Program-made: the position numbers and the translations under genes
The notes under the pieces: generated by a model
What the model saw: only the letters and a program-made list of their open reading frames with translations
Database searches by the model: none
Told to the model about the DNA's origin: nothing
Assembly (NCBI GenBank): GCA_021774995.1
Contig: JAJFIM010000172.1
Coordinates: forward strand, 1-50,006
Source: Alphaproteobacteria bacterium
GTDB lineage: Bacteria > Pseudomonadota > Alphaproteobacteria > SMXP01
Length of the DNA: 50,006 nt
Direction: 5' to 3'
In this document: positions 19,147 to 37,146 of the stretch, in pieces
Numbering within the stretch: the stretch's first letter is position 1
Layout: each line of letters opens with the position of its first letter

Positions 19147-20494
19147 TATTTGTGCTTAAGGAGTGAGGTTGGTTGTTCTCCATGTTAAAAAGAAAGTGAA
19201 CATCAACCTTTAAAACAATGGAGAACACCCATGAAATATTATGTCGGATTAGACGTCTCAGTAAAAGAAACTTCTGTATGTATTGTAAATCAGGATGGCG
19301 ATATGATTGCAGAAAAATCAATTTTATCCGAACCTGAAAGTCTCGCTCAATATTTAGAATCTCATGCAATCAAATATGAACGCGTAGGGATTGAGGCAGG
19401 ATGTATAACGCCTTGGCTTTATCACGAATTGACAGCGATCGGATTACCCATGATCTGCATTGAAACACGCCACGCAAAAGCGGCGATGTCTGCACAGAAC
19501 ATAAAAACTGATAAAAATGATGCTCGTGGCATTGCTCACATAATGCGTACTGGATGGTATAAGACCGTACATGTGAAAAGTGACGAAAGCCAAAAAATAC
19601 GCGTTCTTCTAAACAATCGTAAATGCTTGCAAAACAAGGCTATTGATGTCGAAGCTCAAATCAGAGGAACATTAAAGGTTTTCGGACATAAGGTTGGGCG
19701 CATTTCAATAAAGGCTTTTGAGCACAGAGTGAGAGATCTCATTGGAGATAGTGACGAACTCATACTTTATATTGAACCGCTCTTAATCGTACGCGGACAG
19801 TTAAGAACACAATTTCAGAAATTGGATAACATGATAATGCAAATAGCTAAAAATGATATGGTTTGTGAACAATTTATGAGCATTCCGGGAGTAGGGGCTC
19901 TAACAGCTTTGACATTCAAGGCCGCCATTGATAGCCCTAAACGCTTTTCAAAATCAAAAAATGTAGGCGTCCATTTAGGATTAACGCCGCGCAAGTATGC
20001 TTCCGGTGAAATTGATTATAGTGGAAGAATTACAAAATGCGGAGATGCAGGCGCACGATACCATCTTTATATCGCTGCACAGCATCTCATCAATAAAGTT
20101 AAAAAATGCTGCCCCCTTAAAGAATGGGGAATTCGTATCGCAAAAAGATCATCGCCACAAAAAGCCTATGTTGCCGTCGCCAGAAAGCTGTCTGTCATAA
20201 TGCATCGTATGTGGGTGGATGGGACATATTATGAACATGCGTAAGCAAAATACGAAACAGCAAGTCTTATAAAAGAATTCCTGAAAGGGGAATAATGTCC
20301 GGTTAGGACGATAATGAGATGAATATGTGGCCTCCCTTGTGACTTAGATTACGCAGGGCAGATTATATCTCTCGTTTTTGTTTGTAAGGTATCATGAGAC
20401 AGTCTTTAAGCTGATCTCGTAGAGAAGGATAATCCTGACCAGATATTAAGAAAACGCATGGAGTAAGAATATGCCCAGTTGACAAGCACAAATA
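19147..20494 (+). mobile_element. IS110-family insertion sequence (~1348 bp; ends good to a few bp), IS1111-like layout with long 3' non-coding end
   Basis: 11-bp terminal inverted repeat tatttgtgctt (19147-19157) / aagcacaaata (20484-20494). Removing 19147-20494 restores an in-frame 155-aa nuclease with a signal peptide. No target duplication, as expected for IS110. Confidence 0.8.
19231..20244 (+). CDS. IS110-family DEDD transposase/recombinase
   Basis: 337 aa. Has YVGLDVS, VGIEAG, KTDKNDARGIA and the C-terminal SIPGVGALTA block typical of the family. Confidence 0.9.
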   Translation: MKYYVGLDVSVKETSVCIVNQDGDMIAEKSILSEPESLAQYLESHAIKYERVGIEAGCITPWLYHELTAIGLPMICIETRHAKAAMSAQNIKTDKNDARGIAHIMRTGWYKTVHVKSDESQKIRVLLNNRKCLQNKAIDVEAQIRGTLKVFGHKVGRISIKAFEHRVRDLIGDSDELILYIEPLLIVRGQLRTQFQKLDNMIMQIAKNDMVCEQFMSIPGVGALTALTFKAAIDSPKRFSKSKNVGVHLGLTPRKYASGEIDYSGRITKCGDAGARYHLYIAAQHLINKVKKCCPLKEWGIRIAKRSSPQKAYVAVARKLSVIMHRMWVDGTYYEHA

Positions 20495-20619: not shown

Positions 20620-21498
20620 CTATGCCGCCTCCCGCATTTCAGAACTGCTATAAAGAAAATCAACGGCTTTTTGCGCGTGAGACGCCGCCGAAAAAATGAA
20701 TTTCTTGTCGTCTTTAAGCGCTTTGAGCCAGCACGCAATATATTGGGCATGATCGGCGCGTGGCAGGGCTTCAACGCCTGTTGAAGCACAAGCCATAGCT
20801 GCGCCCAATTCGGCTACTAATTCCTCAAAAGCATAATCTGACTTATTAAATTTTTCAGATGGAAAACGATCAAGGCGGTGCTTTGCGCCTGTCCAGTGGG
20901 TTAATTCATGGAGTAGGGTGCTGTAATAGTTTTCCGTGGCCGTAGAGTCAGCGGTATCTTTAAAACGCTCTGGGGAGGGCATATTAATAAAATCGCCAGA
21001 AGGGGAATAATAAGCCTTAATTTCACCATGACGTATATCAGCGCCACTAGCATCAATCAACGCATCTGCCGCGCCTATTGAGGCAATCTCAGAGGGCTTA
21101 AAATCCGCGTCTAGCGCAAACCCTTCCACCTGATCGGCATTGAATACGCGTGACCAACGCGCAAACATGCGCTGTGATTGTTCTTCATTATCATGGCTTG
21201 GCTCTTGTTGGAGCATTTTCCAAAAAACGATTTGAGCGGATTTTTCGCCTTTTTTGACCTGTGCGCCACGTTCTTGCCATTGCTTATATGTTGCCCAGAT
21301 TCCAGATTGGTAGCCTTCACTCATTTGATAAGCCCAGAGCAGGGGAACATTAACGCCTTTATATCGTTTCGCCGTTAAAGCATTTTCTGGCAACTGTGTA
21401 ACCCCATGCCACGGCAATTCAAATTTTCCATTAAGCCCTGCTTCAAGTGCATCTATAATTCTATTTGTAACATCTTGGTAAACATCGTTCTTATTCAT
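20620..21498 (-). CDS. ardC: ArdC antirestriction protein (N-terminal ssDNA-binding domain plus zincin-like metalloprotease)
   Basis: 292 aa. N-terminal DVYQDVTNRIIDALEAG...PW...RYKGVNVPLLW and the metalloprotease motif HELTHWTG. Confidence 0.9.
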   Translation of the reverse strand: MNKNDVYQDVTNRIIDALEAGLNGKFELPWHGVTQLPENALTAKRYKGVNVPLLWAYQMSEGYQSGIWATYKQWQERGAQVKKGEKSAQIVFWKMLQQEPSHDNEEQSQRMFARWSRVFNADQVEGFALDADFKPSEIASIGAADALIDASGADIRHGEIKAYYSPSGDFINMPSPERFKDTADSTATENYYSTLLHELTHWTGAKHRLDRFPSEKFNKSDYAFEELVAELGAAMACASTGVEALPRADHAQYIACWLKALKDDKKFIFSAASHAQKAVDFLYSSSEMREAA

Positions 21499-22479: not shown

Positions 22480-22887
22480 TTATTGTGTCTTTTCATTTAC
22501 ATAGATAGCATCACCTTGCAGTGTTTGGTATTCGTCTGTTCCCGAATAGAAAAACCCACCGCCGTTAGTAGAGGGCGTATAACTACTATAGCTATCATGC
22601 TTCTCTCCCATCCCACTGAGAATGACGCCATTAGCTCCTATTTTAGCGGCTTGCTTTTTAAGTTCTTCTACAGCGCGATCCAGAGCATCTTGTTGTGAGA
22701 GAACCTCTACTGCTTCAGATTTTACAATACCAATATTTTCAAAATTTGTTTTAGGCGCGTGGCGATACACTGTTACCAAAGAAGGGTCTATAGGATTACG
22801 TCTCTCGCCCGTAACCAATGCCGATCCCGTGGCGCACCCAACGAGAATTAGCGTTAGCATCAAAATAGAGAATTGTCGTAAAATCAT
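22480..22887 (-). CDS. lipoprotein, unknown function
   Basis: 135 aa. Signal peptide with lipobox LILVGC. Confidence 0.7.
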   Translation of the reverse strand: MILRQFSILMLTLILVGCATGSALVTGERRNPIDPSLVTVYRHAPKTNFENIGIVKSEAVEVLSQQDALDRAVEELKKQAAKIGANGVILSGMGEKHDSYSSYTPSTNGGGFFYSGTDEYQTLQGDAIYVNEKTQ

Positions 22888-22972
22888 AACATCACCTTCA
22901 TTTTCCTTAAACTAGACACAGTTTATTACAAACTGACCGCTTGCAAAACATAATCTTGAAGGTTGCGTCATT

Positions 22973-23287
22973 TTAATTAATCACATCCCTTAAGACTCGC
23001 AGCAGTAAAAACATCGCATAGGTGTCTTGTTTACAGTATTCAGTAAGGTTATCCCATAGCGTAGGTAATTCGCTCTCAGGTAAACTTCCATTGATGAATG
23101 CTCCGTACTGGCGCATGGCTTCGCCGCCATGACCAATCTCAAGATCATCATAACTCAAATCCGTAAAAGCAGGCAAAACCGCTTTAATTGAAGCAGAGCT
23201 GTTCTGGCTTGGATTATAAAGCCACAGTGCTTTCGGACATTGCAGCCCTCTCACATATTGAGATTTTGATATTTTATGTGACGTCAT
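22973..23287 (-). pseudogene. probable internally deleted DUF2779-family gene (N-terminal ~27 aa fused to C-terminal ~75 aa)
   Basis: 104 aa. ISKSQYVRGLQCPKALWL is the usual N-terminus, and LSYDDLEIGHGGEAM...EYCKQDTYAMFLLLRVL the usual C-terminus, of ~450-500-aa DUF2779 proteins as I recall them. Confidence 0.45.
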
Positions 23288-23363
23288 AGTAATCGCTTAT
23301 TGTCATGTTCTTAAAAATGGCTTATTTTCTCATTTATACATTCTTCTAGATAATGAGGGAATA

Positions 23364-23561
23364 GTGAAAACCGACATTTTAACAGTGAAAGAGCTTTCGG
23401 AATACCTCAAGCTCAATGAAAAAACTGCTTATCGGCTCGCAGCCAAGGGAGAAATCCCTGGCTTTAAGGTTGGTGGAAGTTGGCGTTTTAACAAGGCAGA
23501 TATAGACAACTGGATACAACAGCAAAAAGCCGTATCCAACAAAAATAGAGAAAAGAGTTAG
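23364..23561 (+). CDS. excisionase-type (MerR-like) HTH DNA-binding protein, first gene of the defence operon
   Basis: 65 aa with GTG start. LTVKELSEYLKLNEKTAYRLAAKGEIPGFKVGGSWRFNKADIDNWI is the classic 'excisionase family' HTH. Confidence 0.75.
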   Translation: MKTDILTVKELSEYLKLNEKTAYRLAAKGEIPGFKVGGSWRFNKADIDNWIQQQKAVSNKNREKS

Positions 23562-23563
23562 AT

Positions 23564-26320
23564 TTGAACGCCGTAGAGATCGAAGAGGCAATATCACTTT
23601 TAGCGGAACAATCATTTGATCCGGCTGAATTTCCGTATGCGTTTTTAGAAGCCTTTGGCAACAAAACTACGACAATCAAACAATTAAGAAAAGGCACTAG
23701 CAATAAATCCGATATAGAAGGCGGTGTGCTACAGCGTAACAATATTCACATGGCTGTTTGTGCAGAGGGCAGGGTAGAAGAAACGCTCCAAAAACTTAAA
23801 GACAGCCCCCCAACAGCAAAATCCAAGGCTAAATTTATTCTAGCCACTGATGGTAAAGATTTTCAGGCTGAGGACGTAAATAGCGGCGAAACCGTTGCCT
23901 GCGACTATTCTAACTTTCATAATCACTTCGGCTTTTTCCTCCCTTTAGCTGGCATCAGCACCGTAAAACAAATACGTGAAAATTCCTTTGATATTAAGGC
24001 CACAAGCCGCCTGAACAAGCTTTACATCGAACTGCTGCAACATAATCCCGAATGGGCATCAGAAGAGCGTCGTCATGACATGAATCATTTCTTGGCGCGG
24101 TTGATTTTCTGCTTCTTTGCCGAAGATACCGATATTTTTAACGGCGATAATCTATTTACCGCCACCGTTGAAAAAATGAGTAACGGCAATGTAGAAAACA
24201 CCCATGAGATCATAGGTGAAATTTTCCGCGCAATGGATACTAAACAGCCAGAACGCGCGGAAAAGAACATCAAGAACTGGGCAAATGACTTCCCATACGT
24301 AAACGGAGAATTGTTTTCCGGCTCAACAGAAACACCAAAATTTACCAAAATCGCTCGCTCTTACCTGATTCATGTAGGCAATCTGGACTGGAAACAAATC
24401 AATCCTGACATTTTTGGCTCAATGATACAGGCCGTGGCAGATGATGAGGAACGCGGCGCATTGGGGATGCACTATACTTCCGTGCCAAATATATTAAAGG
24501 TGCTTAACCCGTTATTCCTTGATGACCTTCGCGAAAAGCTTGAAGAAGCTGGTGACAGCAAGATTAAGCTTCTTAATCTGCGAAAACGAATAGCGCGTAT
24601 TCGTGTTTTCGATCCAGCTTGTGGGTCTGGTAACTTTCTTGTTATCGCCTATAAGCAAATGCGGGAAATCGAGCATGAAATCAATAAACGGCGCGGCGAA
24701 ACTGGCCAATCCAGTGAAATTCCACTTACAAATTACCGAGGGATAGAGTTGCGGGATTTTTCAGCAGAAGTAGCGCGATTAGCTCTTATTATTGCTGAGT
24801 ATCAATGTGACGTTCTCTATCGTGGCCAACAACTTGCCTTGGCCGAATTTCTACCTCTAAATGCTGAAAATTGGATTACACAGGGAAACGCTTTACGAAT
24901 AGATTGGCTATCAGTATGTCCTCCGACAGGCACAAGCGTAAAGCTACATGGTGATGACTTATTTAATACGCCACTCGATCAGTCTGAAATAGACTTTGAG
25001 AATGAGGGCGGTGAAACCTATATCTGTGGAAACCCTCCATATTTAGGGTCTACATGGCAATCCAAAGAACAAAAATCCGATCTGGAAGCAATTTTTAAAG
25101 ATCATACAAAAACATGGAAGTCATTGGATTATGTAGCGGGTTGGTTTATGAAAGCCGCCGAATACGGCAGACATACAAATGCAGCAGCGGCCTTTGTGTC
25201 AACTAATTCAATATGCCAAGGCCAACAAGTGCCTATCCTTTGGCCTTTGATTTTTAAAACCGACCATGAAATTTCATTTGCACATACTTCCTTCAAATGG
25301 GCAAATCTAGCGAGCTATAACGCCGGTGTCACTGTTGTAATTGTCGGAATATCAAACCAAGCAGGAAAAACAAGACGATTGTTCTCAATAGGCGAGGATG
25401 AAAATACGATTGAAAAAAGAGCTGAAAATATAAATGCCTATTTAGCAGTCGGCGCAAACATTATAGTGAGCAAGGAATCAAAGCCATTAAATAATTTAAC
25501 CTCCATGGATTTTGGAAGTAAGCCTGTAGATGGAGGCAATCTATTTTTAAATCTAACTGAAAAAAAGAGTCTAATTTTTAAGCATAAAGAGGCTAAAAAA
25601 TATATTCATTCTTATTCAAACTCCGAAGAATTCATAAATGGCAAACAACGATTTTGTCTTTGGATTAATGATAATGATTATGAAACGGCAAAAGAATTAC
25701 CAGAAATAGGGCAACGCCTGAACGCTGTTAAAAAAATGCGAGAAGAGAGTTCAAAAGTTCAAACTCAAAATATGGCTGCTTGTCCTCACAAGTTTGGTGA
25801 AGTCAGACATCGTGATAGTTCCTATACAATGGTTGTTCCTCGTGTAAGTTCTGAAAATCGTGATTTTCTTCCTGTAGGCTTAGTCAAAGGAGGGACGATT
25901 GTCGGCGACCGGAATTTTGCGCTTTACGATGCGCCGCTTTGGAATATGGCGTTAATTGCTTCACGCCTACACTGGGTTTGGATCGGTACAGTATGCGTTC
26001 GCATGAGAACGGACTTTTCTTATTCCAACACGCTTGGCTGGAACACGTTTCCCGTTCCGCCGCTTACTGAAAAAAACAAAGAAGACTTAACTGCTTGCGC
26101 CGAAGAAATCCTGATAGCGCGGGAACGGCATTTTCCGGCCACCATTGCCGACCTTTATAATCCAGACAATATGCCGGAAGATTTACGCCGCGCCCATGAT
26201 CGTAACGATGAAGTGTTAGAACGTATCTATATCGGCCGCCGCTTTAAAAATGACACCGAACGCCTCGAAAAACTCTTCGATCTCTACACTCAAATGACAA
26301 CCAAGGGGAGGGTAGCATGA
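23564..26320 (+). CDS. MmeI/PglX-family gamma-class N6-adenine DNA methyltransferase with own TRD; N-terminal nuclease-like domain appears catalytically dead
   Basis: 918 aa with TTG start. Helical motif FLARLIFCFFAEDTDIF, motif I VFDPACGSGNFL, motif IV GNPPYLGS. No D..ExK block in the first 170 aa. Confidence 0.85.
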   Translation: MNAVEIEEAISLLAEQSFDPAEFPYAFLEAFGNKTTTIKQLRKGTSNKSDIEGGVLQRNNIHMAVCAEGRVEETLQKLKDSPPTAKSKAKFILATDGKDFQAEDVNSGETVACDYSNFHNHFGFFLPLAGISTVKQIRENSFDIKATSRLNKLYIELLQHNPEWASEERRHDMNHFLARLIFCFFAEDTDIFNGDNLFTATVEKMSNGNVENTHEIIGEIFRAMDTKQPERAEKNIKNWANDFPYVNGELFSGSTETPKFTKIARSYLIHVGNLDWKQINPDIFGSMIQAVADDEERGALGMHYTSVPNILKVLNPLFLDDLREKLEEAGDSKIKLLNLRKRIARIRVFDPACGSGNFLVIAYKQMREIEHEINKRRGETGQSSEIPLTNYRGIELRDFSAEVARLALIIAEYQCDVLYRGQQLALAEFLPLNAENWITQGNALRIDWLSVCPPTGTSVKLHGDDLFNTPLDQSEIDFENEGGETYICGNPPYLGSTWQSKEQKSDLEAIFKDHTKTWKSLDYVAGWFMKAAEYGRHTNAAAAFVSTNSICQGQQVPILWPLIFKTDHEISFAHTSFKWANLASYNAGVTVVIVGISNQAGKTRRLFSIGEDENTIEKRAENINAYLAVGANIIVSKESKPLNNLTSMDFGSKPVDGGNLFLNLTEKKSLIFKHKEAKKYIHSYSNSEEFINGKQRFCLWINDNDYETAKELPEIGQRLNAVKKMREESSKVQTQNMAACPHKFGEVRHRDSSYTMVVPRVSSENRDFLPVGLVKGGTIVGDRNFALYDAPLWNMALIASRLHWVWIGTVCVRMRTDFSYSNTLGWNTFPVPPLTEKNKEDLTACAEEILIARERHFPATIADLYNPDNMPEDLRRAHDRNDEVLERIYIGRRFKNDTERLEKLFDLYTQMTTKGRVA

Positions 26321-27000
26321 GGTTTGCATTAGTAGATAATAGGAAAGTTGCACCACAACCAAAGATGCAAGGAACTTGCCCTCATTGCGGTGAGGTTATG
26401 ATCTCAAAATGTGGAAGAACCAAAGTTTGGCATTGGGCGCATAAGTCACGAGAAGTATGTGATCCATGGTGGGAAAATGAAACAGAATGGCATCGAAATT
26501 GGAAAAACCAATTTCCTGTAGAATGGCAAGAAATTTCAGCCATTGATGAGCTTACTGGAGAGCGCCATATAGCAGATGTTAAAACACCAGATGCCTTTAC
26601 TGTAGAATTTCAACACTCTCCGATGCCCCCAGAAGAAATGATCGCACGAGAATCTTTCTACGGAAATATGATATGGATAATTGATGGTTTAAGAAATGAC
26701 CTAGATGTTAGCTATTTCAATATGGGTTTAAGCAGAGAACCCGTTAATGTCGATGGACCGCAAGCCCACGCGTTTGAGTGGTGGGGAAGAAGCCGTTTGA
26801 TGCATAATTGGTCAGAAGCTAAGTCGAGAGTCTTTCTTGATTTTGGAGATGAATTTTATAATGGCAAGCCCATGCTGTGGGTACTGATATGTTTTGATAA
26901 AACAACAAAACAGGGTGTTGTAGGCCCATACCCTAAAGCTCTGCTGATTGAAAATATTGTAAACAACAAATGGTGCGACATACCATCCATAACTGAATAA
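26317..27000 (+). CDS. CoiA-like PD-(D/E)xK-superfamily nuclease-fold protein
   Basis: 227 aa. CPHCG zinc knuckle, HWAHKS, ETEWHRNWK, RHIADV, VEFQHSP and MIWIIDG follow the CoiA family order. ATGA overlap with the MTase stop. Confidence 0.65.
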   Translation: MRFALVDNRKVAPQPKMQGTCPHCGEVMISKCGRTKVWHWAHKSREVCDPWWENETEWHRNWKNQFPVEWQEISAIDELTGERHIADVKTPDAFTVEFQHSPMPPEEMIARESFYGNMIWIIDGLRNDLDVSYFNMGLSREPVNVDGPQAHAFEWWGRSRLMHNWSEAKSRVFLDFGDEFYNGKPMLWVLICFDKTTKQGVVGPYPKALLIENIVNNKWCDIPSITE

Positions 27001-27022
27001 ATAGAAAGCTGTAGGAATTATC

Positions 27023-29074
27023 ATGACCGAAAATAAAAGCATACCATCCGTTACTGTAAATTATAAAAGTACAGGCAGCTCCACTTCATCTAACGAGCTA
27101 GGTATGCGCCCAATGCAAGAACGCGCCTATGAAAAGCGCGGTGAACAATATTTGCTTATTAAATCGCCGCCAGCATCGGGGAAGAGTAGGGCGCTCATGT
27201 TCATCGCTCTTGATAAGCTTGAAAATCAAGGCGTGAAGCAAGCCATTATTGCCGTACCAGAGAAATCTATCGGTTCGAGTTTTGCCGATGAACCTCTTAC
27301 AGGCTTCGGCTTTTATTATGATTGGCATGTAGAACCAAAATGGAATCTATGCAACGCCCCTGGGGAGGATGGCAGGAAGATAAATTCAGTTAAATCCTTC
27401 CTTGAAAGCGAAGATAAAATTCTTGTCTGCACACACGCAACTTTTCGCTTTGCCATAGAGCGTTTTGGGGTTGAAGCCTTTGACGACCGTTTAATAGCTA
27501 TAGATGAGTTCCACCATGTCAGTGCTGAAGAGGATAATGTCCTTGGTTCACAGCTTAAACAACTCGTTTCCCGAGACAAAGTGCATGTTGTGGCCATGAC
27601 GGGCTCATATTTTCGCGGTGATGCTAACCCTGTTTTAGCGCCTGATGATGAAGCCAAATTTGATACTGTCACATACACTTACTATGAACAGCTTAACGGC
27701 TATGAATATCTGAAAACGCTTAATATTGGCTATTACTTCTATAGCGAGGCATATGCCGATGAAATTTTAAATGTTCTTGATCCGAATGAAAAAACGATCA
27801 TTCATATACCAAACGTCAATTCCCGCGAAAGTATGGGCGACAAAATCAAAGAAGTTGAACATATCATTGAAGAACTAGGCGACTGGCAAGGGATCGATCC
27901 GGACACTGGCTTTCATTTAGTGAAAACATCAGAGGGGAAAACCATACGAATTGCTGATTTGGTTGATGATGATAAATCAAAGCGCGACAAGGTTTCCGCT
28001 TCCTTAAAACGTCCAGAGGCTAAAAAGAACCGTGACCACGTTGATATTATCATCGCGCTTGGCATGGCAAAAGAGGGTTTTGACTGGATTTGGTGCGAAC
28101 ATGCACTCACCGTAGGTTATCGTTCTAGCCTGACGGAAATAGTACAAATTATTGGGCGTGCCACAAGAGACGCACCTGCAAAAACCCATGCTCGTTTCAC
28201 AAATCTGATTGCTGAACCGGACGCTGCGGAAGACGCCGTTACTGACGCTGTAAACGATACCCTTAAAGCAATTTCAGCCAGCTTGTTGATGGAACAAGTG
28301 CTTGCACCAAAATTCAATTTTGTGCCTAAAAACCCACAAAATACCGCAGACCCAGATTTTGATTACGGGGAAGGGGGCTATAATCCAGATAAGTGTAATG
28401 TCGGTTTTAACGATCAAAGCGGTCAATTTCAGATCGAGATAAAAGGTCTAACAGAACCAAAGAGTGAAAACGCACAACGTATTTGCCAAGAAGATTTAAA
28501 CGAGGTTATTGCGGCTTTCGCTCAAGACAAGCAAGCGATCGAGCGCGGCCTGTTTGATGAAGAAATGGTGCCAGAGGAGCTGACGCAAGTTCGAATGGGG
28601 AAAATAATCAAAGATAAATACCCTGAACTGGATGATGAAGATCAAGAATCTGTACGGCAACATGCTATAGCAGCGCTGAACTTCACGCAAAAAGCAAAAG
28701 AAACACTTAACAACGATGATGAATTAGGAGGGCGTGGTAATACAGCTTTGATTGATGGCGTTCGTAAATTTACAATGGATGTCCGTGATTTGGATGTTGA
28801 TTGGATAGACAGCATTAACCCATTCAGCGAGGCATACTCAATTCTCTCCAAAGCTATGACTGAGCAAAGCTTAAAAGCAATGGCAGAGGTCATATCAGCC
28901 AGAAAACCTAATATATCAGCGGATGAAGCGCGCGAATTAGCAAAACGGGGGCTAAAGTTCAAACAAGAGCGTGGCAGGTTGCCTGATATTAAATCTGCTG
29001 ATCCTTGGGAACAACGTATGGCGCAGGGCATTGCCTTCCTAGCACGCATGAAAGCAGAGGCCGCTAATGGCTAA
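27023..29074 (+). CDS. SF2 (ResIII/DEAD-DEAH-type) helicase without an intrinsic nuclease domain
   Basis: 683 aa. Motif I SPPASGKS, II AIDEFHH, III AMTGS, VI VQIIGRATR. ~280-aa helical C-terminal extension ending in a 'GRLP' module. Confidence 0.85.
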   Translation: MTENKSIPSVTVNYKSTGSSTSSNELGMRPMQERAYEKRGEQYLLIKSPPASGKSRALMFIALDKLENQGVKQAIIAVPEKSIGSSFADEPLTGFGFYYDWHVEPKWNLCNAPGEDGRKINSVKSFLESEDKILVCTHATFRFAIERFGVEAFDDRLIAIDEFHHVSAEEDNVLGSQLKQLVSRDKVHVVAMTGSYFRGDANPVLAPDDEAKFDTVTYTYYEQLNGYEYLKTLNIGYYFYSEAYADEILNVLDPNEKTIIHIPNVNSRESMGDKIKEVEHIIEELGDWQGIDPDTGFHLVKTSEGKTIRIADLVDDDKSKRDKVSASLKRPEAKKNRDHVDIIIALGMAKEGFDWIWCEHALTVGYRSSLTEIVQIIGRATRDAPAKTHARFTNLIAEPDAAEDAVTDAVNDTLKAISASLLMEQVLAPKFNFVPKNPQNTADPDFDYGEGGYNPDKCNVGFNDQSGQFQIEIKGLTEPKSENAQRICQEDLNEVIAAFAQDKQAIERGLFDEEMVPEELTQVRMGKIIKDKYPELDDEDQESVRQHAIAALNFTQKAKETLNNDDELGGRGNTALIDGVRKFTMDVRDLDVDWIDSINPFSEAYSILSKAMTEQSLKAMAEVISARKPNISADEARELAKRGLKFKQERGRLPDIKSADPWEQRMAQGIAFLARMKAEAANG

Positions 29075-30290
29075 AAAACAAGCTTTTACAGATGATGATA
29101 ATGCACTTTTGGAAGAATTAGGCATAGAAACCGAAATTAAGAAAGCGGTTGCTCATACACCAAAAGAGGAGCGGATCATTTCCGGTTTTGAAGAAATACA
29201 AAAATTTATCGAGGATAATGGACGATTGCCTGAACATGGCGAAGATAAGGACATATTTGAACGTCTTTACGCGGTTAGGCTCGATCAAATTCGCAAGCAA
29301 GAAGAAAGCCTAACTCTTCTTAAAAATATTGATTCCCAAAACCTTTTGGATGGAAGCTACGAAGCGGCTGTAGATGTCCCAGATGATATTGACGATGATG
29401 AACTTCTAGCGCAGCTCGGTGTTGATATTGAGAGTGACAACTCCATTACAACATTAACGCATGTTAAGCCTCGCGCTGAGATAAGGGCTGCGGAAGAAAT
29501 TGCCAATCGTACCCCTTGCGAAGATTTTGAGAAATTCAAACCAGTCTTTCAAGCCGTTCAAAAAGAATTGGATATGGGCGTTAGGATTTCTCGAATAATT
29601 CGTAAAGATGCCGGCTTTTTAAAAACAGATATTAAGCAGAGAGAATTTTTCATTCTAGGCGGCCAAACTCTATATATTGCTGAGGTTGGCGAAACTATAA
29701 AAGCGCCTAACGGCCAAACAGACGCACGATTACGCGTCATTTATTCAAATGGTACTGAAAGTGATATTCTGCTTCGTTCGCTTCAACGCGCCATTTATAA
29801 AGATGAAGCGAGCAGGCATATTACAAACCCCACGGCTGGGCCTTTATTTTCCGACAAAGATAGTGAAGGTGATTTAGAAAGCGGCACTATCTATGTGCTT
29901 CGAAGCCTTTCAGATCACCCAACAGTCATAGAAAACAGAGACATTGTTCATAAAATCGGGGTTACTGGTGGTGATGTTGAAAAACGTATTACCAACGCTA
30001 AAAATGACCCAACTTTCCTCATGGCCGGTGTAGAAATCATTGCCACATACAAGCTGGCAAATATCAGCCGCACAAAACTTGAAAAAATCATTCATAAGTT
30101 CTTCAATGCTGCAAAGCTAGATATTGAAATCATAGACCGATTTGGAAAGCCTGTTACAGCTAGAGAATGGTTCTTAGTGCCAGTGTTCGTCATTGACGAA
30201 ATGGTAGAAAAAATTAGAGATGGTAGCATAAGCGAATATTATTATGACCCTAAATCTGCGTCATTAAAGAAAATGGCGGGTCTAAACTAA
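29067..30290 (+). CDS. T5orf172/MUG113 (GIY-YIG-like) domain protein with N-terminal 'GRLP' helical module
   Basis: 407 aa. C-terminal domain has GTIYVLRS...HKIGVTGGDVEKRI...AREWF. 8-nt overlap with the helicase gene. Confidence 0.8.
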   Translation: MAKKQAFTDDDNALLEELGIETEIKKAVAHTPKEERIISGFEEIQKFIEDNGRLPEHGEDKDIFERLYAVRLDQIRKQEESLTLLKNIDSQNLLDGSYEAAVDVPDDIDDDELLAQLGVDIESDNSITTLTHVKPRAEIRAAEEIANRTPCEDFEKFKPVFQAVQKELDMGVRISRIIRKDAGFLKTDIKQREFFILGGQTLYIAEVGETIKAPNGQTDARLRVIYSNGTESDILLRSLQRAIYKDEASRHITNPTAGPLFSDKDSEGDLESGTIYVLRSLSDHPTVIENRDIVHKIGVTGGDVEKRITNAKNDPTFLMAGVEIIATYKLANISRTKLEKIIHKFFNAAKLDIEIIDRFGKPVTAREWFLVPVFVIDEMVEKIRDGSISEYYYDPKSASLKKMAGLN

Positions 30291-31285
30291 TGGGATTACT
30301 ACAGAACGCAATTTACTCAATAGAAGTTGGTATTGAGGACTATCAGGAAGGTGAAGACAAAAGAAATGTATCTGCTGTTCGAAACGTATATGCAGGCATC
30401 CTTCTTCTCCTAAAAGAAAAGCTAGTACGCCTTTCACCTGAATATGACCCCGACCTTCTTATAAAAAAGCGTTTAATTCCACAAAAGAACAAAGCTGGTG
30501 ACGTCGAATTTATTGGAGCCGGAAAAACAACAGTAAACCTCAAAGAGATAGAAGTTAGGTTTAAGAATCTAGGGGTAAGCGTAGACTGGAGCCGACTTTA
30601 CGAAATAAGCCGCCTGCGAAATGAACTTGAGCACTATTACACAGATAAATCTCCTGGGCTGGTACGAGAAACTCTAGCCAAATCATTTCTTATCATAAGA
30701 GATTTTTTAACAAACGAACTAGACGAAAGCCCCGTCTCTATAATCGATCGCGATCTATGGCCTGCGTTCTTAGAGATTGAAGAAGTGTTTTTTGCAGAAG
30801 AAAAAGTATGTAAAGAGTCATTTAAAGGTTTTAACTGGAAGTATGAAACAATAAATCAAGCGGTAAAGCATGCTAAATGTTATTTCTGCGAGTCCTCACT
30901 TGTACAACTTATTGAGCATGAGCCATACGACGATAAACCAGCAGGCAAGCCTCTTTTCAAAGAGTTTCTTACAAAAATGCAATGTAACTCTTGTGGGGAG
31001 CCTATTGATTACTGGCCAGATTTCTTTGAAAAATGCGTAGAAGAGCTTTTGTACACTGATTCATATATCGCCGCTACTGAAGGAGGCATCCCTCCCTACG
31101 ATTCCTGCCCTGAATGCGGAAAAAATACATTTATATTTGAAGAGGGGTGCTGTGTTGCCTGTGATTATAAACCTGAGCATGAGGGGTGCGCTCGCTGTAG
31201 TAATCACATAGGCCTTGATGAACAAGATTTGAACGGATTGTGTTCTTACTGCGCTAACCTAGCTGAAAAAATCAGGAGAGAATAA
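30290..31285 (+). CDS. uncharacterised protein: N-terminal helical domain with RNxxxH (HEPN-like) motif plus C-terminal cluster of six CxxC pairs
   Basis: 331 aa. RLRNELEH at aa 108-115 (nt 30611-30634). CYFC, CNSC, CPEC, CVAC, CARC and CSYC in the last 130 aa. Start overlaps the upstream stop (TAATG), and its stop abuts the next start (TAAATG). Confidence 0.6.
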   Translation: MGLLQNAIYSIEVGIEDYQEGEDKRNVSAVRNVYAGILLLLKEKLVRLSPEYDPDLLIKKRLIPQKNKAGDVEFIGAGKTTVNLKEIEVRFKNLGVSVDWSRLYEISRLRNELEHYYTDKSPGLVRETLAKSFLIIRDFLTNELDESPVSIIDRDLWPAFLEIEEVFFAEEKVCKESFKGFNWKYETINQAVKHAKCYFCESSLVQLIEHEPYDDKPAGKPLFKEFLTKMQCNSCGEPIDYWPDFFEKCVEELLYTDSYIAATEGGIPPYDSCPECGKNTFIFEEGCCVACDYKPEHEGCARCSNHIGLDEQDLNGLCSYCANLAEKIRRE

Positions 31286-32557
31286 ATGCCAACTCAGCCT
31301 GTAGCTATAACACCACCGCATACGGCCATAACTTCTTGGAGCGGTTTTATATACCAGGGCAAGGTTGCCCTGTATCACGTCCTTTGTTTACTAGAAATGC
31401 GACAAGAGTGTGAGGGATACAAATTACAGCTAGATAGCCTAGAAGATTTTGCAATTTTAGACGCTCATTCAAACCCAGTGTCTTTGCATCAAGTGAAAGC
31501 TAAAAAAACTCAATATTATAACGATTACCAAGCTGACATTATCAAAACGAAAGTAAAAGCAGCCTATTGCAATTCTGACCAAGCCTTCTTTCATACAGCC
31601 AGAGAAATTACTGATAAAACTCCAACAGAAATTGCTTCAGATGAAGAACCTGTAAAGCTGTATGAATATGATGGCAAATTCTATTGTGGAGTCGACGAAA
31701 TAGATAGCCAGATTGAAGGACAATTAAAAAAACTATGGGAAGGACAAAGTTTTAAGGAAGCTGATAGCTATACTAGAATAGCTCGTCAGCATTTTGATCA
31801 AATAATATTCAAACAAGTTTTAGCTATCCATGGAATAGTTCACGAAGGCACTCAAAGTGATACGGCAGCGGCATTTAATGAAACCATAGATTTTGATAAA
31901 TTCATTAAGCTTATAGACCATCACAATTTGATGACAATAGGCCAAAGTGAAGAATATTGGCTCTATATTCTTCTAAATGACATGCATCAATATTACCAAG
32001 AATACTGCATTAGTGAAGAGGGTAGCTTCGAAGAAGGCGAAGCAGAAAAACTGGCCAATTATATGTATGCTATAAGCAAACTAAACGAAAAAGAAATACT
32101 GCTCTTTATTAGAAGCATTACTCCACACCGAAAAGGAACCTTAAATTCTCTATCAGAATATAAGGACGAAACGTTTAACCGAGACGACTTTCACTTTGCT
32201 TTCTTAAAAATTCTAAAAACGCTTAAAAAAACGGAGATGAATAAAGGTAATTTATTGCAATGGTTGAAATTAGGCGACTTCTTTTTTCCTACAGCTATCT
32301 CATCACCGCCAAGCGCCACTACAAATGTCTGTATGAAAATCGTAAAGAATTTTAAGAACACTGATTTAGAAGTTTTATATGAAAGGTCTAAATTGATAAC
32401 CTCTGATATTGATGAACCCTCAATTTACGATGCCGTTTCTCATATTATCGGCACTGAGGGTATGGACGACATAGAAAGCAGTGAATACAATATTCTAAAT
32501 TTAAAAAAAGTAGCACTTATATCTTTAGATAAAGCAAAAGATGAAATTAATGATTGA
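31286..32557 (+). CDS. lmuA: Lamassu/ABC-3C effector with N-terminal Cap4/DUF4297-type PD-(D/E)xK nuclease (LmuA/DdmA-like)
   Basis: 423 aa. GFIYQGKVAL ... LDSLEDFAIL ... LHQVKAK is the DUF4297/Cap4 nuclease pattern. Confidence 0.7.
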   Translation: MPTQPVAITPPHTAITSWSGFIYQGKVALYHVLCLLEMRQECEGYKLQLDSLEDFAILDAHSNPVSLHQVKAKKTQYYNDYQADIIKTKVKAAYCNSDQAFFHTAREITDKTPTEIASDEEPVKLYEYDGKFYCGVDEIDSQIEGQLKKLWEGQSFKEADSYTRIARQHFDQIIFKQVLAIHGIVHEGTQSDTAAAFNETIDFDKFIKLIDHHNLMTIGQSEEYWLYILLNDMHQYYQEYCISEEGSFEEGEAEKLANYMYAISKLNEKEILLFIRSITPHRKGTLNSLSEYKDETFNRDDFHFAFLKILKTLKKTEMNKGNLLQWLKLGDFFFPTAISSPPSATTNVCMKIVKNFKNTDLEVLYERSKLITSDIDEPSIYDAVSHIIGTEGMDDIESSEYNILNLKKVALISLDKAKDEIND

Positions 32558-33269
32558 TCTTATAAAAAATATTTTTACTAGCTACGGCTACACAAATACT
32601 GGATTAGACTCTCCAGATTTAACTTTGTACTCAAGTTCAGGTGATAGAGAGGAATATTGGCTGGTAACTCGAATTAATTCCGAGACTGACGCCTTACAAG
32701 AACAGCAAAACTTTTTTGATCGATGTGCCACACACATTGATAGTCCTACCTTAGAGAAAAATGTATCACTTTTGATGGTTTGGGAAACATCTGGTCACCT
32801 TCCACTAGAGGACCTTAAGAGAAAGATCATGCAAATAGAAGAAGACGCATATTTCTTTAAAAAATATGTTTTGCATTATGCGCCGCAACAAAAAGTAGCT
32901 CTGCAGCAAGAGCTAGGAGAAGAAAACAGCTTAAAAGATTTTCTATCCGAAAAAATAGTCAACCAGGACATATTTAAAAGATACAAAAATGAAAAATTAG
33001 AGAATAGCCATACAATGACTTGGGAATCTCTAATATATCGAATGGCGATTAAAATCCCTTTCATAAACGTAAAAATTGAATCTAAAGATGATTTAGGTTC
33101 CCTAAAGAGAGAAAACCAAGAGGCAATTGATGAAAAAGAGGCGCATATAATTGAGATAAATGAAAAGCTCTTCTCTTTGAGAAAGCAAGATTACCTTTTT
33201 GACGCTGAGACCGCACCAGAGGAGTTATTGGATGCTCTAGAGGAGGAACTAAATGAAAATCAGAATTAA
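32541..33269 (+). CDS. lmuC: Lamassu/ABC-3C middle component (LmuC/DdmB-like)
   Basis: 242 aa, acidic and helical. Assigned from its position between the nuclease effector and the SMC-like ATPase, with 17-nt overlaps on both sides. Confidence 0.55.
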   Translation: MKLMIDLIKNIFTSYGYTNTGLDSPDLTLYSSSGDREEYWLVTRINSETDALQEQQNFFDRCATHIDSPTLEKNVSLLMVWETSGHLPLEDLKRKIMQIEEDAYFFKKYVLHYAPQQKVALQQELGEENSLKDFLSEKIVNQDIFKRYKNEKLENSHTMTWESLIYRMAIKIPFINVKIESKDDLGSLKRENQEAIDEKEAHIIEINEKLFSLRKQDYLFDAETAPEELLDALEEELNENQN

Positions 33270-35604
33270 GCGCATAAAAGTTGAGGGGTTTAAGTGCTTT
33301 CAGAGTTTTTCAAGAAACTTTTACAGCGAAAACATAATAATATTCGATGGGCCAAATGGATTTGGCAAAACATCTTTTTACGACGCAATTGAATTTCTTT
33401 TCACCGGCCAAGTTCGACGCTATGAAGAATTAGTGACAAGCATTGTTGATAAAAGAAGCAATAGCCAAGACGGAAGCCCACTCTTAAATAAAGACTATGA
33501 TGGGGAGGGCTTAAGTATTAAAGCTGAATTAGAGGTTAATGGAGAGACCGTCTTTTTAATGAGAAAAGAAAGTGCAGTCACTTTAAGGTCACAACAAAAA
33601 ATAAGTTCTACAAAACTCCCATTGTACCGACTGAAAAGCTTCGAAGATAACAATCCACCACGCGAAGAAAACGAGACAGAATACTTACAAGGTCTTTTTG
33701 GAAAAGATTACATCGAAAATTTTGAATATCTCAATTATATAGAGCAACAAGAAAATATATATCTACTCAAACAACCTGACAAAGGTCGTGCCACTGCAAT
33801 TGCTCATCTCTTTAAAACTTCAGAGTTTCAAAATAAAATCCAACTGATTACCGATGCAAAGAAAAAGCTTAAAAAGCTCTGTGATGCTGATAAAAAAAGG
33901 CAATTAGAATCACAAAAGCAAGATCTTGATGAACAAGAAAAACGTTTTAATGAAAGTGAAATAAATCAAGCAGATTACACGCGTTTGATCAATTGGAAAG
34001 AAATAGTATGGGACAAAAAACAAATCGACGTTCCAATATCTAGCTTTGTAGAATGGCTTGATGATGATGGCGAATTAGATGGGCTACTACAGCTAGTCAG
34101 CCATCACAAAGAGTATAAGAAAGAACGAGAAAATAGAAAAATCAAGGCACTACTTGATAATGAACCCCTATTAAAACAGTACATACAGTATTGGAAATAT
34201 ATAGAGAAAGAACCCAGCCTATCACGCGCACTGAGTTTACAAGATGAAATAACTGATTTTTTAAAATCCTATGAAAATGGTGTTGTAAACCACATTGAAA
34301 AAGATCCCTTTGTTTTAAGCGAAGATCTTAAAAGTATATTACAACAAACAGAACTAATTGATTACACAAGCTACACCCCAAGTTTAGAGCATATAAAATC
34401 AGTTCAAAGCAGAACTAACTCCTTCTCTGTAATGTTGACTAAAATTCAAAGTACCAGACAGAATTTTATTGATAAATTTTTAAAGCACTCAACAGAGTTA
34501 GCACATGAAGGCGCTTGTCCATTATGCGGTTACTCATGGGAAGATTTAGAAAAACTAAAAAAAGAATTTAAAGAACAAGAAAAGCATTTCCAAGTCTTGA
34601 TAGAGAAAGAAGGAGCTGAGCTAAATCGAGCAGTAGAAGCCTTTGAAAAACAAACATTAGTTCCTTTGAAAACGTTTTTAACTGAATATAAAAATCAGCA
34701 CAAAATAGACAAAGAATTTGTTCTTAAATTGCAGAAGGCAGTACAAAACAGAGATCATTTACATAGGTTAAACCAGGCTTTAGAAGCTAGAGGCATCAAC
34801 ACTCTTGAATACACGAAAGAAGCAAACATTGGTCATGATGAAGTAGGAATAAATGCGTTACTCAGAGAAATATCGTCTCAAGTAAAGGCAGTGGACTATG
34901 AAAAAATACAGTCAAACTATGATGCACTATTTATAGAAATCTTTGAAAAAAGCTTTGATAAGCTCAGTTCAATAAGCGCTGATGATATGAAAAATAAAAT
35001 TACATTCATAAAATCACAATTTGCCCTTAAGAGAAGTGAAGATATTCAGAAAAAACGTAAAGAATATACACACTCTGAAAAACTATTTAAGCGAGCAAAA
35101 AATACACACTTAAAACTAAGTGAACTGGAGAAAATATACAAAAAATCTTTAAGTGACTATCAAAGTAGTTTTATCGAAAATATAGAAATATTATTTCATA
35201 TCTACTATGGACGGATAGCACAAGAAACAAAGAATAGCTTGGGGCTTTTTATTCAATCCGATGGAAGTGCTATAAAATTTTTAGAACACCATTCCAGAGA
35301 TACTGACGCGATTTTTACTATGAGTGCCGGCCAATTGGCGACACTAGTAATCGCTTTTACACTTGCATTAAACAAACGGTTTTCTAAAAACAAGCTTCTC
35401 TTTATTGATGATCCCATACAAACGTTAGATGAGTTAAATATAGCCGGTTTAGTTGAGTTGTTGCGTAATGAGTTTGATGACCAACAAATTTTCTTATCTA
35501 CGCACGAAGATTCAATGTCCACTTACATTAGGTATAAATTTAAAAAATTCGGACTCCAGCACGAAAGACTAAGCTTTAAAGAAGCACAACTTAAAGCTAT
35601 CTGA
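33253..35604 (+). CDS. lmuB: Lamassu SMC/Rad50-like ABC ATPase (LmuB/DdmC-like) with central CxxC zinc hook
   Basis: 783 aa. Walker A GPNGFGKTS, signature MSAGQLATL, Walker B LLFIDDP, LSTHE. Long coiled coil with CPLCG at aa 422-426. Confidence 0.8.
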   Translation: MKIRIKRIKVEGFKCFQSFSRNFYSENIIIFDGPNGFGKTSFYDAIEFLFTGQVRRYEELVTSIVDKRSNSQDGSPLLNKDYDGEGLSIKAELEVNGETVFLMRKESAVTLRSQQKISSTKLPLYRLKSFEDNNPPREENETEYLQGLFGKDYIENFEYLNYIEQQENIYLLKQPDKGRATAIAHLFKTSEFQNKIQLITDAKKKLKKLCDADKKRQLESQKQDLDEQEKRFNESEINQADYTRLINWKEIVWDKKQIDVPISSFVEWLDDDGELDGLLQLVSHHKEYKKERENRKIKALLDNEPLLKQYIQYWKYIEKEPSLSRALSLQDEITDFLKSYENGVVNHIEKDPFVLSEDLKSILQQTELIDYTSYTPSLEHIKSVQSRTNSFSVMLTKIQSTRQNFIDKFLKHSTELAHEGACPLCGYSWEDLEKLKKEFKEQEKHFQVLIEKEGAELNRAVEAFEKQTLVPLKTFLTEYKNQHKIDKEFVLKLQKAVQNRDHLHRLNQALEARGINTLEYTKEANIGHDEVGINALLREISSQVKAVDYEKIQSNYDALFIEIFEKSFDKLSSISADDMKNKITFIKSQFALKRSEDIQKKRKEYTHSEKLFKRAKNTHLKLSELEKIYKKSLSDYQSSFIENIEILFHIYYGRIAQETKNSLGLFIQSDGSAIKFLEHHSRDTDAIFTMSAGQLATLVIAFTLALNKRFSKNKLLFIDDPIQTLDELNIAGLVELLRNEFDDQQIFLSTHEDSMSTYIRYKFKKFGLQHERLSFKEAQLKAI

Positions 35605-35736
35605 ATTGTAGAATAAATAAAATGTTTTTAATTAACATAATGGTGTAGCACCAAAGCCTGGTAACCCATTATAAAGCGACCGGAGCATCATAAGATATGA
35701 AGCTAAGAATTTTTGTTAAAAAAGAGAGAATAAGAC

Positions 35737-37146
35737 ATGCACGAAATCATCTGCCCGCACTGCGATAAGGCATTCAAAATCGACGAAGCCGGATATGCCG
35801 ACATTCTAAAGCAGGTTCACGATAGTGAGTTTGAGCAACAGTTGCATGATAGGCTTGAACTGGCCGAAAAGGACAAACTAAAGGAAGTGGAGCTCGCCAA
35901 GAGTAATATCAAAAACGAAATGCAGGAAGTTGCGGCAGCTAAGGATACTGAGATTAATGAATTGAAAGCAAAATTAGATGCTGGTGAGGTGGCACGGAAA
36001 TTAGCAGTGGCAGAAGCTCTAAGTGCTGTAGAGAAAGAACGCGACGTGCTTGCCAACGAACTAAAGCAGGTGAAGCAAGATAGTCTTGCTGCTTCAAAGT
36101 TAGCTGAGGCAAACCTTTCTAAGGAGCTGCAGGGGGTTTCTACATCAAAGGATGCAGAGATTCAGGGGTTAAATGCAAAACTAAATTCCAACGAAATTGC
36201 ACAGAAACTAGCTATCACCGAAGCACTTGGAGCGGTTGAGAAGGAGCGTGACGAACTGAAAAATGGTCTTATACAATCAAAGCTTGAGAAGGAAATTTCT
36301 GAGAAAGCGCTCAAAGACAAGTATAAGACCCAGATAAGAGATCGTGATGATGCTATTGAACGTCTCAAGGATATGAAGGCTCGCCTGTCGACCAAAATGG
36401 TTGGAGAAACCCTTGAGCAGCACTGTGAAACAGAGTTTAATCGTATTCGAGCGACAGCGTTTCCAAGAGCTTATTTCGAGAAGGATAACGACGCAAGTGC
36501 CGGCAGCAAAGGCGACTATATTTTTCGTGACTCAAATGAGTCCGGTACTGAAATCGTCTCAGTTATGTTTGAGATGAAGAATGAGAATGATGAAACAGCG
36601 ACAAAAAAGAAGAACGAAGATTTTCTTAAAGAACTCGATAAGGATCGTAATGAAAAGAACTGTGAATATGCGATCTTAGTATCTCTTCTTGAGCCTGAGA
36701 GCGAGCTTTACAATTCAGGTATTGTCGACGTGTCCCACCGTTATCAGAAAATGTATGTCGTTCGACCTCAATTTTTTATCCCAATCATTACGTTGTTGCG
36801 AAATGCCGCTCAAAATTCACTGCAATACAAAACAGAACTTGCTATGGTAAAGTCACAAAGCATTGATATTACTAACTTCGAGGACGATCTAGATGAGTTT
36901 AAAACAGGTTTTGCACGGAACTACGAACTAGCATCCAAGAAATTTAAAACGGCTATTTCTGAGATCGATAAAACTATCGACCATCTTCAAAAAACCAAGG
37001 ATGCACTACTCGGATCAGAGAACAACCTCCGCCTTGCAAATAACAAAGCTGACGACTTGTCCGTCAAAAAACTAACCAAGAATAATCCAACGATGGCCAA
37101 GAAGTTTGCCGATCGTAAGGATAATGATACAATTGATTCTGATTAA
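35737..37146 (+). CDS. DUF2130-family protein (N-terminal zinc ribbon, coiled coil, C-terminal PD-(D/E)xK-like domain)
   Basis: 469 aa. [17 protein letters not shown] start, a tandemly duplicated coiled-coil segment, and a C-terminal GDYIFRD...FEMKNE block. Confidence 0.75.

Follow-up and report, generated by a model that had tools for sequence, protein, structure and literature searches.

The closest described relatives of the locus analyzed here were reported by Morgan et al. 2009 (PMC2731913), who recognized a second group of MmeI homologs, which lack the PD-ExK motif, differ in their first ~100 residues and lie "invariably" beside a YeeB-like DEAD helicase and a YeeC-like GIY-YIG protein. 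In the model of these authors, the MmeI-like subunit supplies specificity and protective, probably single-strand, methylation, and its altered N-terminal domain contacts separate helicase and endonuclease subunits in a Type I-like architecture; YeeA by itself had no endonuclease activity (PMC2731913). Other studies have shown that YeeA (DnmA) makes N6-methyladenine (m6A) at GACGAG (Nye et al. 2020, PMC7261158), that dnmA-yeeB-yeeC synteny is conserved (Fernandez et al. 2023, PMC9973331), and that Vibrio crassostreae 7F1_18 became sensitive again to one group of phages once yeeAB was inactivated (Piel et al. 2021, bioRxiv 10.1101/2021.05.05.442762). In this study, we analyzed a 50,006-nucleotide (nt) stretch of DNA (the window) from contig JAJFIM010000172.1 of assembly GCA_021774995.1 (Alphaproteobacteria bacterium), which carries a run of five genes, A to E, encoding a small helix-turn-helix (HTH) protein (A), an MmeI-family methyltransferase (B), a short CoiA-like protein (C), a superfamily 2 (SF2) helicase (D) and a T5orf172 protein (E). 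We conclude that B-D-E is likely to be a member of the YeeA(DnmA)-YeeB-YeeC (YeeABC) family, a three-component, Type I-like restriction/defense module of MmeI descent, and that C is non-core cargo. An initial annotation, made from the sequence alone, had presented B to E as an undescribed restriction-like system; this novelty does not stand, since the class was published in 2009 and YeeB and YeeC have their direct homologs in D and E.

B-D-E is placed in the YeeABC family because D and E are homologous to YeeB and YeeC, for which the reference sequences were taken from Fig S5 of PMC9973331. D shares 49% identity with Bacillus subtilis YeeB over 631 residues (558 bits) and 45% with V. crassostreae YeeB over the full length; E shares 37% identity (E value, 1e-55) and 30% identity (E value, 4e-47) with the respective YeeC proteins. 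Pfam searches agreed with the initial reading of both proteins: D is an SF2 helicase with DEAD/ResIII and weak Helicase_C matches and no recognizable nuclease domain, in which a helicase core (residues ~1 to 420) is followed by a conserved C-terminal region of ~260 residues, and E is a T5orf172/GIY-YIG-like protein with the T5orf172 domain at residues 273 to 384 (E value, 1.5e-12) and an additional MUG113 match. The C-terminal tail of D is kept in the window and in V. crassostreae YeeB and is missing from B. subtilis YeeB; it may matter for function, because it is present in the active Vibrio protein and missing from the inactive B. subtilis one. More than 8000 relatives of D were found in the protein collection at an E value of ≤1e-10, and the top 120, drawn from Bacteroidota, Alphaproteobacteria, Verrucomicrobiota and other groups, many of them in other phyla, are 83 to 100% identical to it. 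D is unusually conserved: at the same loci, the methyltransferase is ~60 to 73% and the T5orf172 protein ~55 to 70% identical. Among 108 orthologs of E, HKIG and EWF are conserved in at least 95%, and GxxY.LRS and R-containing motifs are partly conserved at 70 to 95%. In the clade of E, the usual second tyrosine of GIY-YIG proteins is a histidine (residue 295, the first of HKIG), versus YKIG/YKVG in the YeeC proteins of B. subtilis/V. crassostreae.

The five open reading frames (ORFs), their motifs and the overlaps that had been described, 4 nt (ATGA) between B and C and 8 nt between D and E, were all present in the window translations. We then compared the gene order with that of 113 loci fetched via D from metagenome, viral and assembly collections (the D-anchored set; individual loci are given L numbers). 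B-D-E is colinear in all 113 as far as the contigs reach, and E always lies directly after D, which it always overlaps by 8 nt. Spirosoma-type contigs, whose helicase is 86 to 87% identical to D, have an MmeI-like gene, the helicase gene and the T5orf172 gene in this order, with the same ATGA and 8-nt overlaps and without C; in the window, methyltransferase, helicase and T5orf172 genes also follow one another on one strand, with the helicase gene at position +2 owing to C and not at +1. Strict contiguity is not a feature of the family, because 51 of the 96 D-anchored loci in which B's end and D's start are both contained have inserts at this junction.

B carries the five MmeI Pfam domains, MmeI_N (residues 1 to 159; E value, 3.7e-35), MmeI_hel, MmeI_Mtase (E value, 1.7e-119), MmeI_TRD (E value, 6.8e-85) and MmeI_C, and its translation contains both motif I (VFDPACGSGNFL) and motif IV (GNPPY) of the gamma-class N6-adenine methyltransferases. 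It scores 986 bits against the PADLOC model REase_MTase_IIG, and its orthologs are 59 to 78% identical in more than 100 loci. A phmmer comparison with MmeI (PDB 5HR4) aligned residues 89 to 913 of B with residues 108 to 904 of MmeI (466 bits) and left the residues of B before 89 unaligned. For this N-terminal part, 85 B-type N termini from related loci were compared with the MmeI N terminus and with an intact MmeI-like protein of locus L044, a chance find whose sequence includes YIDLLWKQNILVEMKSRG. The N-terminal sequence that we take to be that of MmeI fits the published residues E25, E51, D70, E80 and K82 as well as the intact L044 sequence. The profile of the 85 B-type N termini matched the intact MmeI-type N-domain, represented by L044 and MmeI, in hhalign (probability, 99.9%; E value, 7e-31), and MAFFT and hhalign, in the same register, placed G54, A64 and C66 of B opposite D70, E80 and K82 of MmeI. 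Across the 85 sequences, the triad columns hold G/A, A/K/L and C/A/S, and apart from these columns the domain is well conserved.

This alignment bears out the earlier suggestion that B is a nuclease-dead member of the MmeI family. Because the equivalents of the catalytic triad are G54, A64 and C66, B, as judged from its sequence, cannot be a single-chain endonuclease and would need partner genes. Since the N-domain is otherwise well conserved, it has probably been repurposed as a docking/communication domain. B is predicted, by homology with MmeI and DnmA, to provide site recognition and protective methylation.

We postulate that B, like MmeI and DnmA, would read an asymmetric site via its own target recognition domain (TRD) and methylate adenine (m6A), thereby marking self DNA. 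The dead N-domain would couple B to D and E, as in the model of Morgan et al.; D would be the ATP-driven SF2 motor; and E, which is translationally coupled to D, would be the likely candidate for the nuclease that acts against unmethylated foreign DNA. A would be an optional HTH regulator. C would most likely act by itself, as a structure- or single-stranded DNA (ssDNA)-specific endonuclease with a defense role that is coexpressed with the restriction-modification (RM)-like module. Complex formation, the identity of the cutter and the role of C are inferences. The initial annotation had envisioned cleavage supplied in trans by C and/or E and driven by D; helicase-driven cleavage in trans is a reasonable idea, but C does not fit the part of the missing nuclease, for which E is the conserved candidate. 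A "GRLP" module common to the C terminus of D and the N terminus of E had also been proposed. The resemblance can be recovered but is weak and statistically insecure: BLASTP aligned 11 residues (E value, 0.013), and hhalign of the D and E ortholog profiles aligned 28 columns (probability, 25%; E value, 7.6e-4). V. crassostreae YeeB, as mentioned, keeps the D-type tail, and a GRLP-like motif is also found in YeeC.

The distribution of C is unlike that of B-D-E. Only one of the 96 junction-spanning D-anchored loci contains C (L166). The order A-B-C-D-E or B-C-D-E recurs in L002 to L005, L007, L166 and L194 to L198, in several phyla, and by helicase identity these 11 C-positive loci represent at least seven separate lineages, the nearest neighbors of each being without C; D of the window is 87% identical to that of the C-less locus L081 versus 72 to 77% to those of the C-positive loci L002 to L007. 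In L005 and L197, a second cargo gene accompanies C. Within the protein collection, the C family itself makes up about 2600 clusters, and a further survey of GTDB species representatives yielded 257 relatives; C homologs occur without B, D and E in most of 80 loci. One lies inside a Type I operon (HsdM-HsdS-Hypoth_Ymh-C-x-HsdR; L006, 56% identity), another after HsdS-HsdM (L009), another directly 5' of the intact MmeI-like enzyme of L044, and others after a Thoeris cluster (L018) or, in a Rhodobacterales plasmid clade, after a helicase/ATPase set. In L001 (8458 to 11826), a homolog that is 67% identical stands alone between genes for a metY-like Cys/Met pyridoxal phosphate enzyme and a metX-like alpha/beta-hydrolase, with no RM or defense gene near it. 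The 131 neighbors of 55 nonredundant C loci included no constant partner and belonged to 122 Pfam families, of which the ATPases AAA_21, AAA_15 and AAA_23 were the commonest. C is a self-contained, facultative gene, frequently but not invariably housed in RM/defense operons, and because it is facultative and is found in unrelated contexts, it is not the missing nuclease of the system. The window is a rare, new four-gene variant of a known family.

The place that C occupies is shared by many other genes. At the B/D junction of the 96 loci, no more than 250 nt separate the two genes in 45 cases, whereas 0.26 to 5.7 kb of DNA is inserted in the other 51, and the inserted ORFs form about 35 clusters. 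By Pfam, the cargo includes RhuM, YhcG/DUF1016, Bro-N, PDDEXK_4, NucS-like and AAA_15 and AAA_13 proteins, two reverse transcriptases, Schlafen/AlbA_2, Mrr, YobI NTPase, Fic and HNH proteins and a sub-threshold phospholipase D (PLD)-like match. PADLOC recognized 5 of the 10 cargo representatives tested, as DRT RT_UG5-nitrilase (967 bits), PDC-S06 (763 bits), AbiP2 (685 bits), AriA-like (250 bits) and PDC-S26 (245 bits). The MTase (methyltransferase)/helicase junction of YeeABC-type clusters is thus a cargo hot spot.

Small BrnT/BrnA-like and HigB/ImmA-like ORFs were also seen among the cargo, by eye and in the translations only, and at least four recurrent cargo families had no Pfam or PADLOC match (135 residues; 278 residues, with an RNYIHP motif; 260 residues; and 316 to 388 residues). 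In L139 (2644 to 4372), the B/D junction holds three cargo genes; behind the first and again behind the second comes an incomplete repeat of the ~66 codons with which D begins (80% and 47% identity). To judge from these copies, cassettes seem to have been stacked here through recombination within the conserved 5' end of the helicase gene.

In Pfam searches, C matched CoiA_N only (33.7 bits; cut-off, 26.3), a domain found in all 73 family members examined; its CoiA_nuc score was 14.4 bits (cut-off, 20.3), and 58 of the 73 had a weak, sub-threshold match of this kind (best E value, 2.8e-4). The alignment of the 73 homologs has 36 invariant columns, among them C21, C24, H39, H42, C48, D49, H84, D87, E97, Q99 and S101, and because of these columns we conclude that C is under purifying selection. 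The core reads D87-x9-E97-x-Q99, and the zinc finger consists of C21, C24 and H39/H42. An AlphaFold model of C (pLDDT, the predicted local distance difference test, 87.6) places D87 and E97 on consecutive strands, at residues 83 to 89 and 95 to 99. Comparison of the model with PDB folds gave no significant match; the best was YaeQ (E value, 0.09), and I-Bth0305I and T7 endonuclease I, also PD-(D/E)XK folds, were among the others. The C-family profile had no match among PDB sequences. Fold matches were obtained in BFVD, a collection of predicted viral structures, with E values of 6e-18 to 1e-4, including a phage "Competence protein." PADLOC models, including that of PD-lambda-4, matched none of the 73 family members.

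Bona fide CoiA is a Bacillota-restricted PD-(D/E)XK endonuclease that is specific for ssDNA or DNA structure and acts as a D-loop resolvase; it has an N-terminal C2H2-like finger and the active-site residues D95/E105, on strands beta2 and beta3, and acts together with the helicase RadA (Hardy et al., bioRxiv 2024.02.06.579203). C resembles it in the N-terminal finger and in the ten-residue spacing of D87 and E97, which is that of D95/E105. It differs in having only 227 residues (the old full-length Pfam CoiA model has 390 positions) and no long C-terminal extension such as that of CoiA, in lying outside the competence regulon and in its range: unlike CoiA, relatives of C occur in Proteobacteria, Acidobacteria, Chloroflexota, Bacteroidota and others, in RM/defense contexts. 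A CoiA-N-like region is also shared with PD-lambda-4B, which lies beside an ATPase in PD-lambda-4, a validated Escherichia coli defense system (Vassallo et al. 2022). From its sequence, C is a candidate embedded defense gene that encodes a short CoiA-like zinc-finger/PD-(D/E)XK-like protein. The joint proposal that the C-type family is a new single-gene anti-phage/anti-plasmid nuclease and that the YeeABC methyltransferase/helicase junction is an unsurveyed embedding site is a tentative one, which we regard as possible rather than probable.

Several points weigh against a B-D-E restriction module that merely houses C. The restriction function of the family is proven only in one Vibrio strain and only for yeeA/yeeB; the B. 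subtilis cluster showed no restriction of plasmid uptake (Nye et al. 2020, PMC7261158), and B. subtilis dnmA-yeeB-yeeC gave no protection against three Bacillus phages (PMC9973331). The CoiA_nuc match of C is below the Pfam threshold, and C has no significant match to a solved structure. Furthermore, wherever the gene context was examined, close relatives of C (~62 to 97% identity) occupied the slot between B and D, L001 being the exception, and C is translationally coupled on one or both sides, its stop codon overlapping the start of D in L198. This leaves room for a functional tie of C to B/D/E in that sub-clade of C (56 to 97% identity).

Such a tie could take the form of a sub-lineage add-on, in which C cooperates with the module, for example by structure-specific cutting of DNA unwound by D, and thereby broadens or strengthens restriction. 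This proposal draws on the location of the closest C relatives and on the L198 overlap, on the analogy with the nuclease/helicase pairs CoiA-RadA and YraN-ComM, in the first of which CoiA is synergistic with the helicase, and on PD-lambda-4, which pairs an ATPase with a CoiA-N-like protein. However, relatives that are 56 to 67% identical are lodged within a Type I RM operon in L006 and stand singly amid housekeeping genes in L001, the same slot takes dozens of unrelated genes, and no PADLOC PD-lambda-4 match to C was found; we therefore consider an add-on role unlikely.

It is distinctly unlikely that C is instead a selfish, mobile, free-standing nuclease gene that spreads in a homing-like manner without benefit to the defense of its host. 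The solo insertion of L001, the very heterogeneous neighborhoods of C, the occurrence of homologs in viral proteomes and the highly conserved targets that the flanks of C in the module would offer (B at its 3' end, D at its 5' end) are all as such a gene would have them. Nevertheless, neither a target-site duplication nor a signature of homing was observed, purifying selection acts on C, and the slot accepts many genes, known defense genes included, which argues for a general cargo site and not for homing specific to C.

The B. subtilis data (PMC7261158, PMC9973331) suggest a further explanation, namely, that B-D-E is a relic in which B serves as an orphan regulatory methyltransferase and D and E are inactive, as proposed for B. 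subtilis. At this locus, however, every ORF is intact and coupled, the tail present in V. crassostreae YeeB and absent from B. subtilis YeeB is retained in D, D is 83 to 100% identical to its top 120 relatives across phyla, and the cluster is set in a defense island on a conjugative element, beside PDC-S64 and Lamassu; a relic is quite improbable. Very improbable is the obligate four-gene system of the initial annotation, in which C, with or without E, would replace the lost MmeI nuclease and D would drive the reaction: although C combines a zinc finger with an invariant D87/E97/Q99, is coupled to B in translation and recurs in the (A-)B-C-D-E order in 11 loci of several phyla, it is missing from 95 of the 96 D-anchored loci (45 of which have B and D adjacent), published descriptions give the clusters of B. 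subtilis and V. crassostreae as dnmA-yeeB-yeeC, C-positive loci are polyphyletic on D, and C homologs mostly occur without B, D and E, so that its distribution largely refutes an obligate unit. We therefore favor the three-component YeeABC-type module with C as embedded cargo.

The positions of the genes of the module and of their neighbors are listed in Table 1. The ORF positions of the initial annotation are correct, but the array does not end with E at 30290: same-strand genes run on to 35604. Genes A to I form a single 12-kb co-directional array, in the 3' part of which (30290 to 35604) the genes have overlapping or abutting ends. The window also contains RepC, ParB, HipA, ArdC, VirB4 and TrbL, genes of a conjugative element, and the B-D-E cluster lies in a defense island of this element, adjoining PDC-S64 and Lamassu.

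Table 1. Positions of the B-D-E module, its cargo and neighboring genes in the window
Feature	Position	Strand	Description
A	23364-23561	+	65 aa; HTH_17, excisionase-type DNA-binding protein, MAD1-like
B	23564-26320	+	918 aa, TTG start; MmeI-family gamma-class N6-adenine methyltransferase with its own TRD, YeeA/DnmA-type
B N-terminal domain, aa 1-159	23564-24040	+	Homolog of the MmeI PD-ExK nuclease domain, without catalytic D/E/K
C	26317-27000	+	227 aa; short CoiA-like protein, zinc finger and PD-(D/E)XK-like core
D	27023-29074	+	683 aa; SF2 helicase/translocase, YeeB ortholog
E	29067-30290	+	407 aa; YeeC ortholog, C-terminal T5orf172 (GIY-YIG-like) domain
F	directly after E	+	331 aa, cysteine-rich; PADLOC candidate PDC-S64
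G-H-I	after F, to 35604	+	Lamassu-like ABC-3C: G, LmuA-like/CTD1; H, MComp1; I, LmuB-like ABC ATPase
ArdC anti-restriction gene	20620-21498	-	1.9 kb upstream of A

Loci L194 to L196 have ArdC, a 163-residue gene product and A-B-C-D-E in common with the window, with identities of 97% for C and 94% for D; behind E, however, PDC-S64 and Lamassu are replaced by GmrSD and a SIR2/DUF87 (HerA-like) gene pair. Because different defense genes stand there, the region 3' of E is also a swap site for defense genes on the plasmid family of the window. Just 5' of A, the window has a 104-residue ORF (22973 to 23287, minus strand) where L194 to L196 have a 496-residue DUF2779 gene and a 785-residue gene; this ORF may be a deletion remnant. 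A 337-residue ORF (19231 to 20244) between the replication/partition genes and ArdC has, by eye only, the look of an IS110-family transposase. Farther 3' lie genes for a DUF2130 protein (35737 to 37146) and for a 982-residue SF1 helicase (AAA_11/AAA_12; 38327 to 41275) fused to a DUF559/MTES_1575 restriction-endonuclease-like domain, both of which may be further defense genes of the island. In L014 (10001 to 12026; Chromobacterium fluminis), a C homolog (46%) is followed ~370 nt on by an F homolog (27%); C-like and PDC-S64-like genes are thus neighbors in a second, unrelated locus. A promoter/terminator scan of positions 22800 to 37500 gave no signal above that of shuffled sequence, megablast against PLSDB found no replicon related to the window, and an exact look-up of D in the contig index returned no record.

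Gene A matched HTH_17 in Pfam (E value, 1.2e-18) and scored 79.2 bits against the NCBIfam model MADS1 (MAD1), for which the cut-off is 80. Homologs lie directly 5' of B in only a minority of loci (L090, L092, L096, L099, L115, L163, L165 and L194 to L197); A is optional at this upstream position and probably controls transcription of the operon.

The core family has been known since 2009, and its mechanism is still unsolved. It is also very abundant, with more than 8000 helicase clusters and up to 95% identity across phyla. PADLOC v2.0.0 contains no YeeB or YeeC models and called B only as a Type IIG enzyme; pipelines will keep calling such clusters "new" or mislabel B as a complete Type IIG enzyme, and a correct assignment is useful for this reason. 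The junction between the methyltransferase and helicase genes is a rich embedding site that could be mined for new defense genes, C included, and the C-positive operons provide a natural test of whether an embedded nuclease cooperates with its host RM module.

Comparison with other systems narrows the assignment further. Pfam and PADLOC upheld the earlier view that the genes belong to none of Type I, Type III, BREX and DISARM. Methylase_S, HSDR_N and EcoEI_R_C were not found by Pfam, and D has only the DEAD/ResIII/Helicase_C core; the PADLOC scan gave only weak PglX/DrmMI/mad2 matches, on the methyltransferase core of B, and no system-specific match to C, D or E, on which ground Hma, BREX and DISARM membership was rejected. 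MADS was rejected with a MAD2 score of 14.9 bits (cut-off, 720), A alone being MAD1-like, and membership in PD-lambda-4 was rejected for lack of a PADLOC match to C. A single-chain Type IIL/IIG identity was rejected for B because the N-terminal PD-ExK triad is missing: the Type IIL enzyme MmeI (PDB 5HR4) and B share homologous N-domains, a helical spacer, a gamma-class methyltransferase, TRD and C-terminal domains, but only MmeI has an intact D70/E80/K82.

Like B-D-E, Type I RM systems separate modification and specificity from motor and nuclease, and their operons are often broken by embedded defense genes such as RhuM, YhcG, Fic and PrrC-like genes (Payne et al. 2024) and TgvAB. Unlike B-D-E, in which specificity lies inside the methyltransferase chain, they have HsdS and HsdR; the motor and candidate nuclease of B-D-E are two proteins, and the candidate nuclease has a GIY-YIG-like fold, whereas the Type I nuclease is of the PD-(D/E)XK type. 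Embedding of defense genes is an established concept (Payne et al. 2024; TgvAB), and about half of the YeeABC-type clusters hold nested, diverse cargo in the manner of the "guilt by embedding" hosts Hma, BREX and DISARM as well as Type I RM, although the YeeABC-type host was not among the systems surveyed by Payne et al. 2024. The YeeABC clusters of B. subtilis and V. crassostreae have the same order and orientation as that of the window, with a PD-ExK-less MmeI homolog followed by a YeeB-type helicase and a YeeC-type protein; their YeeC proteins have YKIG where E has HKIG, B. subtilis YeeB is without the C-terminal tail that D keeps, and the window differs from their arrangement by two additional genes, a CoiA-like one that separates methyltransferase from helicase and an HTH one at the 5' end.

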